A stretch of 64,000 bases of DNA from Eledone cirrhosa (Eukaryota): contig OZ024742.1 in the NCBI GenBank assembly GCA_964016885.1, positions 5,518,001 to 5,582,000 of the forward strand. Direction: 5' to 3'. The position numbers and the translations under genes are program-made. Each line of letters begins with the position of its first letter. Within the stretch, counting starts at the first letter, position 1. Under the pieces are notes generated by a model. It did not search any database and was not told the DNA's origin. It worked only from the letters and a program-made list of their open reading frames with translations. Below are positions 27,311 to 56,161 of this stretch, piece after piece.

Positions 27311-27670
27311 GGTTTTCTAAATGTTTTTAATTAAACATACGGTATATTGCCAAATATACTATACATACATTCATGTACACATCGTTATTTCAGACCACCG
27401 ATCATAATAACTAATTTTTGTTGGACCGGCAATCGCTCTGTATAATCAGTTCCTTATTATTACTGGAATTCTATAAGAATCTTATAATTTTCGGCGGAAG
27501 CAGGGGAGTACGTGGCTCTGATGAACGGCAACCAGCGTGAAACAGTCTGTAAGCTTCTCTCCCTTCTTTCGCCGAAAAGAAGTAAGTGACATAGTCACTA
27601 CTTTAAAACTGATAGTGTATGGTCTTCTAAATGTTTTTAATTAAACATACGGTATATTGCCAAATATACT

Positions 27671-27680
<10 letters not shown>
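27311..27680 (+). mobile_element. 310-bp HHR-containing retrozyme-like monomer with about 60 bp terminal direct repeat
   Basis: ggtyttctaaatgtttttaattaaacatacggtatattgccaaatatactatacatacat at both 27311 and 27621; HHR core at 27518; flanked by (TA)n; shares motifs with the 311-bp array. Confidence 0.85.
27514..27555 (+). ncRNA. Type I hammerhead ribozyme
   Basis: GGCT-CTGATGA-ACG-gcaaccag-CGT-GAAA-CAG-t-CTG-TA-AGCT; predicted cleavage after GUA at 27551; stem I extends as ttttcggcggaag/ctttcgccgaaaa. Confidence 0.85.
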
Positions 27681-27726
<46 letters not shown>

Positions 27727-27728
<2 letters not shown>

Positions 27729-28683
27729 TAGACATGAAAAATGCGCAAGCTCAAAAGTGCCACAGAATGTTATAATAAACCTTCAAAAGTGTGGGACTAG
27801 AGTTGTTGCTAAAAAATATTGTAATCATTATATATCGTACATTCTGTGGCATCCTTTATAAAAATAGCTTAAACCAACGAAGCCTTTATTTTTACGCTAT
27901 TTCACTTAGTTAATTCTTAGAGTGTAACATATAAAAATATGATTTACAACTATAAAATAAATTAATTAATATAATAACAGAGCTGCGGAGCTGAAATTTA
28001 GGAAATAAGGGAATATCGGATCCTGAGTTGGAGCCAGTCAATTTTTGGCCGACTCCGCAGCCCTGTATAATACATTTCATATTAAAGTTATTAATAAACC
28101 TATTTTACACTGCATGCAAATTACCATGAGATATTGATATTAGATATAAGATACAGCGCAATATCTACAGCTGTAAAAGTACGAAAGCGAAGTAATAATA
28201 AGTGGCTTAAGGTAATTCCAATATGAAAGTTTGTAGTGATAAAAATTTGATAATGCAATACGATTGTTAATATTATAGTTCTATGAAAATGTAACAATAG
28301 ATAACTAAATTATTTTACTATTAGTATATTTAAGAAATTATCATTATAGATTTGATCGTTCATATAAGCATCATATTAATTTTCAACACAATTATTTTGT
28401 TACTATGAGTATATGATAATAATATTACGTAATTATTTATAGCTGTTATTACATTAAACATAGATGTATTTATTTTTATATGTTACACTCTAAGAATTAA
28501 CTAAGTGAAATAGCGTAAAAATAAAGGCTTCGTTGGTTTAAGCTATTTTTATAAAGGATGCCACAGAATGTACGATATATAATGATTACAATATTTTTTA
28601 GCAACAACTCTAGTCCCACACTTTTGAAGGTTTATTATAACATTCTGTGGCACTTTTGAGCTTGCGCATTTTTCATGTCTAGT
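27727..28683. repeat. Inverted repeat, arms about 213 bp (27727-27939 and 28471-28683), both ending outward in CTAG-T
   Basis: actagacatgaaaaatgcgcaagctcaaaagtgccacag... is reverse-complemented as ...ctgtggcacttttgagcttgcgcatttttcatgtctagt. Confidence 0.9.
27978..28065. mobile_element. Very short hAT-like MITE
   Basis: Termini CAGAGCTGCGGAG / CTCCGCAGCCCTG; flanks tataataa / tataatac form a 7/8 match to an 8-bp TSD. Confidence 0.75.
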
Positions 28684-29237
28684 TTAATATTTTTTTAAGG
28701 CAACGCTTGTAATAACTCTAGTTAAAGAGGATATATATTAATAATAAATTATCGTTGTAATATAATTAGATTATGTAATTGTTATTATAAATTATCTTAT
28801 AAATATTAGTGTAAGATGTATAAAAATATTTTCAGACTTTTAATATAAACAACTACAAAAAACAATCAATATTAAATCAATATATTATACATAATAGAAA
28901 ACATAAAATAAACAATACAAAAACAAAATATTTACATACAATTGCAATTATCAGTGTATATACATTTTCTTTATATTCCCTGAGCAAATTAATAAGATTT
29001 GTTTTTATTGTACATAATTTGATGACTTGTTGGAGTGTATTAAAAGATAGCAACAATTTGTGATTAAATTGTTATCTTAAGCAACTCACTTTTTAATAGT
29101 TGTTGGCTGAGCGAAATTGTAAAAGCCTATGAGCAAATATAAAAAAAAATACACAAACAACATTTCCTTGTGTTATTACAACATTAGATAAAATAATTGA
29201 GCAATGTCGTTATATTTTGCTCTTATTGCACATTAAT

Positions 29238-52565: not shown

Positions 52566-52579
52566 ATATATATATATAT

Positions 52580-52941
52580 ATATGTGAATATAGACATAGA
52601 ATATTCGAAAATATTCTGTATGTTTATAATAAACATTTTGAAGACCTAATCGCTATAGAATAGAATACGTCACGTATTACAACTAGATTCTCGATAAAAG
52701 CAAGGGAAGTAAGTCTACGCGTTTCATTCTTGTTAGAATTCATCAGGACTACATATCCAGTGCTTTCATCGAGAATGACACAGCTAGAGACTTATAGAAT
52801 ACTTAGCTGTGTACAGGAACTGGTTTGAAAGAGCGGTTGCCGGTCCGGCAGAAATTAGAAATTGGAATAAATGCTCTGAAATAGCGATATATATGTGAAT
52901 ATAGACATAGAATATTCGAAAATATTCTGTATGTTTATAAT
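52580..52941 (-). mobile_element. Inverted copy (about 1.15 units) of the 311-bp HHR monomer
   Basis: Reverse complement of the array unit; HHR on the minus strand at about 52709-52752 (gtaagtctacgcgtttcattcttgttagaattcatcaggactac). Confidence 0.93.
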
Positions 52942-52949
52942 CAAAATTA

Positions 52950-55900
52950 TCTTCAAAATGTTTATTATAAACATACAGAATATTGTCGAATATTCTATGT
53001 CTATATTCACATATATATCGCTATTTCAGAGCATTTATTCCAATTTCTAATTTCTGCCGGACCGGCAACCGCTCTTTCAAACCAGTTCCTGTACACAGCT
53101 AAGTATTCTATAAGTCTCTAGCTGTGTCATTCTCGATGAAAGCACTGGATATGTAGTCCTGATGAATTCTAACAAGAATGAAACGCGTAGACTTACTTCC
53201 CTTGCTTTTATCGAGAATCTAGTTGTAATACGTGACGTATTCTATTCTATAGCGATTAGGTCTTCAAAATGTTTATTATAAACATACAGAATATTTTCGA
53301 ATATTCTATGTCTATATTCACATATATATCGCTATTTCAGAGCATTTATTCCAATTTCTAATTTCTGCCGGACCGGCAACCGCTCTTTCAAACCAGTTCC
53401 TGTACACAGCTAAGTATTCTATAAGTCTCTAGCTGTGTCATTCTCGATGAAAGCACTGGATATGTAGTCCTGATGAATTCTAACAAGAATGAAACGCGTA
53501 GACTTACTTCCCTTGCTTTTATCGAGAATCTAGTTGTAATACGTGACGTATTCTATTCTATAGCGATTAGGTCTTCAAAATGTTTATTATAAACATACAG
53601 AATATTTTCGAATATTCTATGTCTATATTCACATATATATCGCTATTTCAGAGCATTTATTCCAATTTCTAATTTCTGCCGGACCGGCAACCGCTCTTTC
53701 AAACCAGTTCCTGTACACAGCTAAGTATTCTATAAGTCTCTAGCTGTGTCATTCTCGATGAAAGCACTGGATATGTAGTCCTGATGAATTCTAACAAGAA
53801 TGAAACGCGTAGACTTACTTCCCTTGCTTTTATCGAGAATCTAGTTGTAATACGTGACGTATTCTATTCTATAGCGATTAGGTCTTCAAAATGTTTATTA
53901 TAAACATACAGAATATTTTCGAATATTCTATGTCTATATTCACATATATATCGCTATTTCAGAGCATTTATTCCAATTTCTAATTTCTGCCGGACCGGCA
54001 ACCGCTCTTTCAAACCAGTTCCTGTACACAGCTAAGTATTCTATAAGTCTCTAGCTGTGTCATTCTCGATGAAAGCACTGGATATGTAGTCCTGATGAAT
54101 TCTAACAAGAATGAAACGCGTAGACTTACTTCCCTTGCTTTTATCGAGAATCTAGTTGTAATACGTGACGTATTCTATTCTATAGCGATTAGGTCTTCAA
54201 AATGTTTATTATAAACATACAGAATATTTTCGAATATTCTATGTCTATATTCACATATATATCGCTATTTCAGAGCATTTATTCCAATTTCTAATTTCTG
54301 CCGGACCGGCAACCGCTCTTTCAAACCAGTTCCTGTACACAGCTAAGTATTCTATAAGTCTCTAGCTGTGTCATTCTCGATGAAAGCACTGGATATGTAG
54401 TCCTGATGAATTCTAACAAGAATGAAACGCGTAGACTTACTTCCCTTGCTTTTATCGAGAATCTAGTTGTAATACGTGACGTATTCTATTCTATAGCGAT
54501 TAGGTCTTCAAAATGTTTATTATAAACATACAGAATATTTTCGAATATTCTATGTCTATATTCACATATATATCGCTATTTCAGAGCATTTATTCCAATT
54601 TCTAATTTCTGCCGGACCGGCAACCGCTCTTTCAAACCAGTTCCTGTACACAGCTAAGTATTCTATAAGTCTCTAGCTGTGTCATTCTCGATGAAAGCAC
54701 TGGATATGTAGTCCTGATGAATTCTAACAAGAATGAAACGCGTAGACTTACTTCCCTTGCTTTTATCGAGAATCTAGTTGTAATACGTGACGTATTCTAT
54801 TCTATAGCGATTAGGTCTTCAAAATGTTTATTATAAACATACAGAATATTTTCGAATATTCTATGTCTATATTCACATATATATCGCTATTTCAGAGCAT
54901 TTATTCCAATTTCTAATTTCTGCCGGACCGGCAACCGCTCTTTCAAACCAGTTCCTGTACACAGCTAAGTATTCTATAAGTCTCTAGCTGTGTCATTCTC
55001 GATGAAAGCACTGGATATGTAGTCCTGATGAATTCTAACAAGAATGAAACGCGTAGACTTACTTCCCTTGCTTTTATCGAGAATCTAGTTGTAATACGTG
55101 ACGTATTCTATTCTATAGCGATTAGGTCTTCAAAATGTTTATTATAAACATACAGAATATTTTCGAATATTCTATGTCTATATTCACATATATATCGCTA
55201 TTTCAGAGCATTTATTCCAATTTCTAATTTCTGCCGGACCGGCAACCGCTCTTTCAAACCAGTTCCTGTACACAGCTAAGTATTCTATAAGTCTCTAGCT
55301 GTGTCATTCTCGATGAAAGCACTGGATATGTAGTCCTGATGAATTCTAACAAGAATGAAACGCGTAGACTTACTTCCCTTGCTTTTATCGAGAATCTAGT
55401 TGTAATACGTGACGTATTCTATTCTATAGCGATTAGGTCTTCAAAATGTTTATTATAAACATACAGAATATTTTCGAATATTCTATGTCTATATTCACAT
55501 ATATATCGCTATTTCAGAGCATTTATTCCAATTTCTAATTTCTGCCGGACCGGCAACCGCTCTTTCAAACCAGTTCCTGTACACAGCTAAGTATTCTATA
55601 AGTCTCTAGCTGTGTCATTCTCGATGAAAGCACTGGATATGTAGTCCTGATGAATTCTAACAAGAATGAAACGCGTAGACTTACTTCCCTTGCTTTTATC
55701 GAGAATCTAGTTGTAATACGTGACGTATTCTATTCTATAGCGATTAGGTCTTCAAAATGTTTATTATAAACATACAGAATATTTTCGAATATTCTATGTC
55801 TATATTCACATATATATCGCTATTTCAGAGCATTTATTCCAATTTCTAATTTCTGCCGGACCGGCAACCGCTCTTTCAAACCAGTTCCTGTACACAGCTA

Positions 55901-56161
55901 AGTATTCTATAAGTCTCTAGCTGTGTCATTCTCGATGAAAGCACTGGATATGTAGTCCTGATGAATTCTAACAAGAATGAAACGCGTAGACTTACTTCCC
56001 TTGCTTTTATCGAGAATCTAGTTGTAATACGTGACGTATTCTATTCTATAGCGATTAGGTCTTCAAAATGTTTATTATAAACATACAGAATATTTTCGAA
56101 TATTCTATGTCTATATTCACATATATATCGCTATTTCAGAGCATTTATTCCAATTTCTAAT
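52950..56161 (+). mobile_element. Tandem array of 311-bp HHR-containing units (10 full + about 0.3), retrozyme-like
   Basis: tcttcaaaatg recurs at 52950, 53261, 53572, 53883 ... 56060 (period 311); each unit has one HHR; no ORF of 60 aa or more. Confidence 0.95.
53153..53196 (+). ncRNA. Type I hammerhead ribozyme (first of ten, repeated every 311 bp)
   Basis: GTAGTC-CTGATGA-ATTC-taacaa-GAAT-GAAA-CGCG-TA-GAC(t)TAC; predicted cleavage after GUA at 53189. Confidence 0.9.

Follow-up and report, generated by a model that had tools for sequence, protein, structure and literature searches.

Retrozyme arrays of Eledone cirrhosa carry a Penelope-like insertion footprint

Three related hammerhead ribozyme elements, named here E1, E2 and E3, lie in a 64,000-nucleotide stretch of Eledone cirrhosa DNA (contig OZ024742.1, positions 5,518,001 to 5,582,000), hereafter referred to as the window. 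They are members of one high-copy family that belongs to a known class, the metazoan non-LTR retrozymes, and its copies were very probably inserted by a mechanism of the Penelope-like element (PLE) type. The initial annotation of this DNA had placed its main interest in the covariation of the ribozyme stems. The class is already described (PMC7229834), and the PLE-type insertion footprint, which is more informative, was overlooked.

Results

The three elements and their ribozymes

Both strands of the window were scanned with a type I hammerhead descriptor. Matches start at 27518 (E1), at 52392 (E2), at ten positions given by 53159+311k (E3) and, on the minus strand, at 52746, a hammerhead that had been overlooked. 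The descriptor yields a mean of 0.02 matches in 100 dinucleotide shuffles of the 44,023 non-array bases. The core is intact in E1, in E2 and in 11 of 11 E3 copies. The features are as follows.

27308..27687, plus strand: E1, a solo copy of 1.2 units from an old subfamily, between (TA)n tracts
27488..27578, plus strand: type I hammerhead of E1, distal stem I 27488-27500/27566-27578, core from 27518
27551, plus strand: predicted cleavage of E1 after this position (GUA)
52123..52255, minus strand: inverted 5'-truncated arm of E2, 0.42 unit, with a 'long' 3' end (position 169) in (TA)n
52252..52570, plus strand: main arm of E2, 1.0 unit, with a 'short' 3' end (position ~143) in (TA)n
52363..52452, plus strand: type I hammerhead of E2, core from 52392, predicted cleavage after 52427 (GUC)
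52576..52948, minus strand: inverted arm of E3, 1.2 units, one hammerhead (core 52746-52740), short 3' end at 52576
52950..56161, plus strand: main arm of E3, 10.3 near-identical 311-bp units with ten hammerheads
53129..53218, plus strand: first E3 hammerhead, 15-bp distal stem I, core from 53159, predicted cleavage after 53189 (GUA)
53288..53307, plus strand: small hairpin, with equivalents at 27651-27670 and 52528-52547
53320..53362, plus strand: 'tail' segment between the two preferred 3' ends, unit positions ~131-173

Descriptor matches and mutual alignment confirm the earlier claim of three related type I hammerhead elements of ~310-320 nt. Sequence identities are 76% for E1-E2, 67% for E1-E3 and 66% for E2-E3. 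The block upstream of the ribozyme alone aligns with 70-83% identity, with scores of 73-123 against shuffled maxima of 7.5-20; the elements therefore do align outside the catalytic core, a point on which the initial annotation had staked its reading. The motifs occur in the claimed order in E1, E2 and E3, and all quoted stems were found again: stem II (ACG/CGT, GTAC/GTAC, ATTC/GAAT), stem III (ACAG/CTGT, ACAGA/TCTGT, ACG/CGT) and distal stem I. Repeat periods of 310, ~315-320 and 311 bp had also been proposed. E3 is a true tandem array (10.3 x 311), but E1 comprises only 1.2 units, with a direct repeat at a spacing of 310, and E2 has no tandem period in the window, although its relatives give 318-321. 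E2 and E3 each have one inverted partner arm.

The description of all helices as different was overstated, as proximal stem I is largely the same in E1 and E2, which also share the outer stem III pairs. Stem III is present as written, but it leaves a loop of 1 nt in E1 or 0 nt in E3, so that the full stem is possible only between two ribozymes. In E3 it is a 6-nt palindrome that can form only in a dimer. The isolated stem III hairpin has an energy of 0 kcal/mol, against -8.3 and -7.5 for the duplex. The core pair 3-8 covaries across subfamilies as C3-G8 or U3-A8, a core swap. The G10.1-C11.1 pair, described as highly conserved (PMC4209133), is intact in the E2 hammerhead; it is found only in E2-type copies and is missing from E1 and E3. 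The pair 10.1-11.1 is A-U in the E3 of the window and U-U in the commonest E3 subfamily, and cleavage of E1 and E3 may therefore be weak.

Whole-window scans and searches with the elements gave no match to the Rfam hammerhead families (CL00010) at the gathering threshold; the best scores were HH9 at 17.8 bits for E3 and 14 bits for E1, against a cut-off of 52, with none for E2. Rfam miRNA matches were rejected, being produced by inverted arms and microsatellites.

Covariation was assessed in 12 copies from about 6 subfamilies, with a structure drawn from these same sequences: pairing holds in 96.5% of cells, and both sides have changed in 18 of 27 pairs. None of 500 shuffles reaches the observed level, and slid controls give at most 3 pairs. 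Selection on RNA structure in a diversified mobile RNA family was thus rightly proposed, but its support is weaker than implied, because the structure was read from the same sequences and the subfamilies are related. E1, E2 and E3 are not independent evidence of structural selection. This selection is on the fitness of the element itself, as a parasite, and not on a host function. Ribozyme covariation alone is expected for metazoan non-LTR retrozymes.

One high-copy retrozyme family

The family motif has 19,642 matches, against 7 in the control, and exact junctions of the long end with (TA)n number 2,992, against 0. Insertions are dispersed, by the thousands, in (TA)n. Each unit carries a type I hammerhead, and the units, 310-321 bp long and in arms of up to 16.6 units, fall within the 150-450-bp tandem units with GC below 45-50% that define the non-coding, dispersed, high-copy retrozymes; the E3 unit has a GC content of 34%. 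No ORF of 120 aa or more was found over the elements, and the ATG in the conserved post-ribozyme motif was rejected as a coding start, with only short, non-conserved frames seen by eye. The elements lack the RT and GIY-YIG ORF of an autonomous EN+ Penelope-like element and are not themselves PLEs. A splice-donor-like motif lies 3' of the ribozyme in E1 and E2, and we take it to be reminiscent of PLE 5' introns.

Footprint of insertion

The arrays of this family have a characteristic anatomy. A divergent, back-to-back layout of two arms was found in 23 of 29 fully fetched E3 loci, 17 of which are best matches, so that this sample is biased towards long arrays. All 23 two-armed E3 loci have one short and one long 3' end (binomial p=1e-7). 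Short ends lie at ~131-143 and long ends at ~164-173, ~26-33 nt apart. E1 has a short end, ~136 nt past the cleavage site. The main arm of E3 has its long end (position 173) at 56161, with (TA)n beyond, and the target of E3 itself was the terminal (TA)n of E2. In the older, E1/E2-type subfamilies, 45 of 76 loci are two-armed; by hand count, 30 of the 35 classifiable ones have one short and one long end, and 10 have other ends. Target-site duplications, which in metazoan non-LTR retrozymes exceed 4 bp when present, were looked for, and both insertion ends lie in (TA)n. We infer that the bounds of the tail (unit positions ~131-173) are internal start sites of reverse transcription. The small hairpin, ~95-118 nt past the cleavage site and directly 5' of the short insertion end, is a candidate binding site for reverse transcriptase.

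The lengths of 53 E3 arms fit an exponential distribution with a mean of 1.5 kb (KS p=0.46), and the 5' breakpoints are spread evenly over the unit (p=0.54) and do not cluster at the cleavage site. Both arms of E3 loci are frequently long. A correlation between the lengths of paired arms is seen in the positional sample (rho 0.83, n=10) and is absent from the best-match sample (-0.09, n=13). E1/E2 arms longer than 2 units are rare (3 arms), which calls for an added explanation, either collapse with age or a different template. A monomer-competent stem III was considered as the cause of short arms; this is weakened by E1 and one E2 subfamily, which have no stable isolated hairpin and yet have short arms.

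This anatomy has the features of PLE cargo: an inverted 5'-truncated copy, a tail at one end and a microsatellite or AT-rich target. PLEs are described with an inverted 5'-truncated copy, a one-sided tail of 30-40 bp and a (TA)n bias (10.1101/2021.04.23.441226), and in vitro PLE reverse transcription starts at two adjacent internal sites and extends both strands (PMC11167929). The same anatomy recurs in a protein-coding PLE-like family of this genome, whose two ends lie ~44 nt apart; wherever both can be seen, in 4 of 4 loci, there is one of each kind. We rejected a fold-back artefact of the assembly: the arm ends differ, the flanks differ, and old diverged copies have the same layout.

The partner element was sought with two PLE families seeded from window ORFs, 30 GIY-YIG loci, 16 long-ORF stretches and 7 downstream stretches of a third PLE family of the window. 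Among the families sampled from this genome, none contained an autonomous PLE whose terminal repeat is homologous, and pLTR homology was absent from 90 search loci and 23 retrieved stretches, a small sample of about 7 PLE-like families. The one strong match (L219) is an E1-type insertion nested in the (TA)n end of a PLE and not a pLTR; three weak matches (L255, L256 and L262), antisense in coding or upstream sequence, were rejected.

Template of the arrays

Haplotypes were obtained for 47 of 61 E3 loci and form 21 classes. Young E3 arrays have a single haplotype throughout, and no mosaic array was found among the E3 loci with a haplotype. In 94,895 compared bases, in a comparison that covered substitutions and deletions, 37 of 37 within-array substitutions are confined to one unit; 15 of them lie in columns with 4 or more copies. 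The E3 of the window has a G at unit position 33 in all covered copies of both arms. This G is absent from the other sampled arrays and accounts for at most 0.03% of depth in run X1. The template for the long arrays was probably a circle. Array homogeneity alone would also fit a very fast DNA-level expansion.

PLE-driven insertion could instead have copied an uncleaved linear multimer from an existing array, with the hammerhead weak or dispensable. The non-canonical 10.1-11.1 pair and the dimer-only stem III of E3 agree with such a template, hammerhead mutants leave PLE insertion in vitro unaffected (PMC11167929), and the uniform 5' breakpoints fit equally well. We consider it unlikely: every daughter would have to be shorter than its parent, yet arms of 6 or more units occur in at least 6 haplotypes; new variants should start in single units, yet there are no mosaics and the rare variant of the window fills both arms; and compensatory changes preserve the catalytic core and stem III.

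Growth in DNA, by unequal crossover or slippage after a PLE had inserted one or two units or a pLTR fragment, is a published scenario (10.64898/2026.07.22.740005). It accounts for the single haplotype per locus, and most old copies have 1-2 units. It is nevertheless quite unlikely here. The youngest arrays are the longest, and of the 15 variants in columns that hold at least 4 copies, none has reached a second unit. The lengths of the arms form a continuous, exponential distribution, both arms are often long, and their lengths correlate, if only in the positional sample. An interpretation of the elements as the truncated terminal repeats of an autonomous PLE, or as a family of non-coding RNA genes under host selection, is very improbable: PLE-like ends and the motif after the E1/E2 ribozyme speak for it, but sequence upstream of a unit continues across the cleavage site as the unit itself and never as an ORF, and old copies decay by ordinary point mutations (143 and 104 singletons), so that individual loci are not conserved.

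Array-wide E3 changes include sense-strand A>G in 12 of 35 cases and T>C in 3 of 35, whereas A>G makes up 0 of 37 single-unit changes (Fisher p=5e-5 for A>G), a result that depends on tree rooting and on few events. The excess was not replicated in E1/E2 with majority polarisation (2/13 vs 16/143; 3/18 vs 11/104). A-to-I editing could well be its cause, short of being the probable one.

Discussion

The balance of evidence favours, as a whole, a model in which both target strands serve as primers for a PLE protein that copies one circular monomer over and over. Multimeric transcripts would be cut by the hammerhead in a dimeric form held together by the palindromic stem III, and the products ligated into monomer circles. 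The PLE protein would cut both strands of a (TA)n site and initiate reverse transcription from a pair of adjacent internal sites, ~135 and ~168 nt past the cleavage site, one for each DNA end. Each cDNA could pass the cleavage junction many times, as a circle permits, before a random stop, and the two cDNAs would be joined, often with a few shared bases, into a divergent double array. Two reports count against this model: the main PLE substrate in vitro is uncleaved RNA (PMC11167929), and cleavage failed in 8 of 9 frog dimers (10.64898/2026.07.22.740005).

More tentatively, the arrays may be fossils of rolling-circle target-primed reverse transcription, laid down kilobases per event with A-to-I edits fixed in every unit. 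The PLE enzyme, probably a dimer, would extend both (TA)n ends from two adjacent starts on one ribozyme-made circle, and the edits of that circle would give the ribozyme family heritable variation (A-U to G-U, later compensated). If so, RNA circles give rise to some satellite arrays at their full length, and the RNA step is recorded in their editing marks.

The spread of animal retrozymes and the tandem, inverted and tailed PLE insertions are open questions according to PMC7229834, 10.64898/2026.07.22.740005 and 10.1101/2021.04.23.441226, and no comparable junction-level evidence for animal retrozymes was found in the literature searched. The 310-nt family is very young and has thousands of clean insertions; it gives start sites at the nucleotide level, could serve as a minimal cis-acting RNA in PLE assays in vitro and allows rolling-circle copying to be separated from DNA-level satellite growth.

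The metazoan non-LTR retrozymes of coral, mussel and axolotl (Cervera & de la Pena 2020, PMC7229834) are likewise low-GC, non-coding tandem units of 150-450 bp, with a type I hammerhead, a dimer-type stem III and thousands of copies. A circular template with a PLE helper was put forward for them as a hypothesis, and the rolling-circle model, too, was already proposed as such in the Discussion of that paper. Expression and circles have been demonstrated for them; the E. cirrhosa elements are described here from their DNA. The latter differ in their long distal stem I (12-15 bp) and in the form of their insertions, which are divergent double arrays in (TA)n with 3' ends at two fixed positions; neither 'inverted' nor 'tail' is used in the main text of PMC7229834.

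EN+ Penelope-like elements share 5' truncation, partial tandems, an inverted 5'-truncated copy, a one-sided tail and AT-rich or (TA)n targets (Craig et al. 2021, 10.1101/2021.04.23.441226), and an internal start of reverse transcription downstream of the hammerhead (Frangieh et al. 2024, PMC11167929). In contrast to them, the E. cirrhosa unit has no RT/GIY-YIG ORF, is ~310 nt and not ~3 kb long, and is repeated up to 16.6 times per arm. PLE hammerheads also have the palindromic stem III and the U3-A8 core variant (PMC4209133); compared with the minimal ones, E. cirrhosa has a stem II of 4 bp and a long stem I.

Vertebrate retrozymes have been interpreted as PLE derivatives (Li, Clavereau & Pollet 2026, 10.64898/2026.07.22.740005), being similarly non-autonomous and PLE-linked and occurring as monomers, dimers and multimers; the average unit in insects, amphibians and coral is ~313-342 bp. 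That study sampled no mollusc and did not analyse junctions (0 occurrences of 'tail' and 'junction'). Its evidence is co-occurrence and pLTR homology, and it favours local DNA amplification, whereas in E. cirrhosa, with no homologous pLTR among the sampled families, the evidence comes from the junctions.

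Elements in the window

Three related hammerhead elements of ~310-320 nt lie near 27311 (E1), 52255 (E2) and 52950 (E3). The type I descriptor places hammerhead cores in the window as follows, where 0.02 would be expected by chance from shuffles:

27518, core of E1
52392, core of E2
53159+311k, ten cores of E3
52746, minus strand, core of E3

The Rfam threshold for a hammerhead was not attained in the elements. The helices quoted in the initial annotation are present in all three sequences, and the elements align outside the core: identity is 66-76% overall and 70-83% across the block that precedes the ribozyme, well beyond what shuffled sequences give. 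A period was assigned there to each element, but E3 alone is tandem (10.3 x 311), and it is located in the (TA)n where E2 ends; E1 has 1.2 units, and E2 one unit and an inverted arm of 0.42 unit. The sequence described as stem III is there, but in E1 and E3 it would leave a loop of 0-1 nt, and full pairing is possible only between two ribozymes.

Family and structure

In the 3.0-Gb genome, the shared motif pair has 19,642 matches, versus 7 with the reversed control. The E3 subfamily is very young, with copies 99-100% identical, while E1 and E2 belong to older subfamilies whose closest relatives, among fetched copies, are 90-95% identical. Other subfamilies among these copies have the U3-A8 catalytic core and different stem III palindromes.

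Covariation was counted in 12 copies, picked to cover about 6 subfamilies. Helix pairing is kept in 96.5% of 311 cells, and in 18 of 27 pairs both partners are altered (distal stem I, 7/12; stem II, 4/4; stem III palindrome, 3/6; and the core 3-8 pair), a descriptive count without a significance test, since the structure was drawn from the same sequences and the rows are related. None of 500 shuffles was as high, slid controls gave at most 3 pairs, and the folds of monomers are more stable than those of shuffled sequences (z -3.9 to -7.3). The proposed covarying structure is borne out descriptively; because old copies hold ordinary single mutations, selection acts on replicating lineages and not on each locus. 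Neither E1 nor E3 has the G10.1-C11.1 pair, where the commonest E3 subfamily shows U-U, so ribozyme activity may, judging by sequence, be low. Helix covariation is expected for the retrozyme class (hammerhead-bearing non-coding mobile RNA elements); the junctions and haplotypes are the reason for follow-up.

Insertion anatomy

E3 loci consist of back-to-back arms, each a run of units on one strand, within (TA)n. Their 5' breakpoints are scattered, and their 3' ends are of two kinds, short (~131-140) and long (~164-173), both numbered from the predicted cleavage site. The E3 loci retrieved in full number 29, comprising 17 best hits, 11 positional ones and the window. Two arms are present in 23 of them, and a short end is paired with a long one in 23/23. 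Of E1/E2-type loci, 45/76 are two-armed; by hand count, both ends could be classified in 35/45 and the rule held in 30/35. Junctions of the long end with (TA)n have 2,992 genome matches, versus 0 for the control. In 16/23 two-armed E3 loci, by raw count, the two arms share an overlap of at least 1 nt.

This layout matches the signature of Penelope-like elements (PLEs), with an inverted 5'-truncated copy, a one-sided 30-40-bp tail and a (TA)n bias, according to 10.1101/2021.04.23.441226; in PMC11167929, two adjacent internal start sites in vitro, with both strands cut and extended, explain this signature. A coding PLE-like family of this genome (frames up to 1,217 aa) has the same two-end layout and a ~44-nt tail. 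The retrozyme arms were very probably inserted in the PLE manner. Double-array centres at loci L035, L037, L138 and L047 contain short extra pieces that either begin again from an identical unit position or switch strand, which is what template jumps in reverse transcription should produce.

The window holds PLE-like fragments of three different families:

6978-7691, plus strand, family with a hammerhead within its terminal repeat
13682-14997, minus strand, PLE-like fragment
25748-26449, minus strand, family with many copies 98-99% identical and frames of ~777 aa

No PLE terminal repeat (pLTR) homologous to the unit was found in about 7 PLE families sampled from window fragments and GIY-YIG searches, a small sample of >10,000 candidates per search. 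The pLTRs at L253, L254, L261 and L251 carry minimal hammerheads with a 6-nt palindromic stem III and a U3-A8 core, the latter common to several retrozyme subfamilies. A splice-donor-like motif directly follows the long stem in E1 (27582) and E2 (52460) and is altered in E3; it may be a remnant of an intron from the 5' part of a PLE.

Template of the arrays

Because the arms run past the cleavage site repeatedly, they were either copied from a circle or from an uncleaved multimer, or else lengthened after insertion. Haplotypes were obtained for 47 of 61 E3 loci (32 of the 61 being 676-bp end pieces only) and form 21 classes, with no mosaic array among the loci with a haplotype. Within arrays, all substitutions (37/37) and 5 deletions are each limited to one unit. 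The window E3 has its own G at position 33 throughout both arms, yet this base makes up <=0.03% of depth in sequencing run X1. In a sample biased to long arrays, 53 arm lengths fit an exponential and 5' breakpoints are uniform. On balance, a circle is the likelier template.

Among between-array fixed substitutions, RNA-strand A>G accounts for 12/35 tree-mapped events versus 0/37 single-unit changes (p=5e-5), with small numbers, root-branch changes and indels excluded, and polarity dependent on the root. Among the recurrent sites are a UAG and, within the small hairpin, an A that faces a C; ADAR prefers such contexts. If one RNA circle were edited, the edit would be copied into every unit and appear as array-wide A>G; an edit in every unit is what a single circle template predicts. 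Against this stand the shortness of old copies, an arm-length correlation that is inconsistent across samples and an excess that was not replicated in the E1/E2 subfamilies; we regard an editing imprint as a tentative reading, somewhat short of even.

Other features

10250-10880, minus strand, and 11330-11990, plus strand, second hammerhead-like family, unrelated to the first, whose two copies form a divergent inverted pair (cores 10347, 11895; TC-rich repeats)
16378-19839, minus strand, LINE-type open frame, 1153 aa (AP endonuclease, RT and zf-RVT domains)
27724-27939 and 28471-28686, perfect 216-bp inverted repeat beginning at (TA)n behind E1
34913-51988, satellite of 17 kb built from ~34-bp units, each with a palindromic core flanked by (TG)n runs, stopping 130 bp before E2

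The second hammerhead-like family, whose 3' part matched 15 times in other fetched loci, probably represents either a further retrozyme or the terminal repeat of a PLE. The inverted repeat is a MITE-like or PLE-like insertion. A further hammerhead-like family, marked by a long stem II, recurs in the unrelated flanks of L035, L071, L087 and L124. Runs X4, X5 and X6, labelled as other organisms, each gave one clean low-depth contig running round the E3 unit (53261-53571) without variants, unlike X1, which gave 655 contigs; since the repeat is very abundant, the three probably reflect contamination, diet or carry-over.

Comparison with known systems

Each sequence-testable feature of metazoan non-LTR retrozymes in PMC7229834 is found in the E elements. 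Unlike PLEs, they have no ORF, so they are not PLEs, but their insertion follows the pattern of PLE cargo. PMC4209133 already described the U3-A8 core, dimers and a palindromic stem III, and it also mentions pairs of hammerheads on opposite strands, probably truncated PLEs. PMC7761336 names PLEs as likely helpers, and 10.64898/2026.07.22.740005 ties vertebrate retrozymes to pLTRs and leans towards local DNA amplification; PMC8969392 added nothing further for comparison. We found no report of tail or inverted junctions, or of editing imprints, in animal retrozymes, in a literature coverage that most subscription papers fall outside. The model in Supplementary Fig. S9 of PMC7229834 may bear on novelty. 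The hammerhead elements are a real feature, of a retrozyme kind that is already known.
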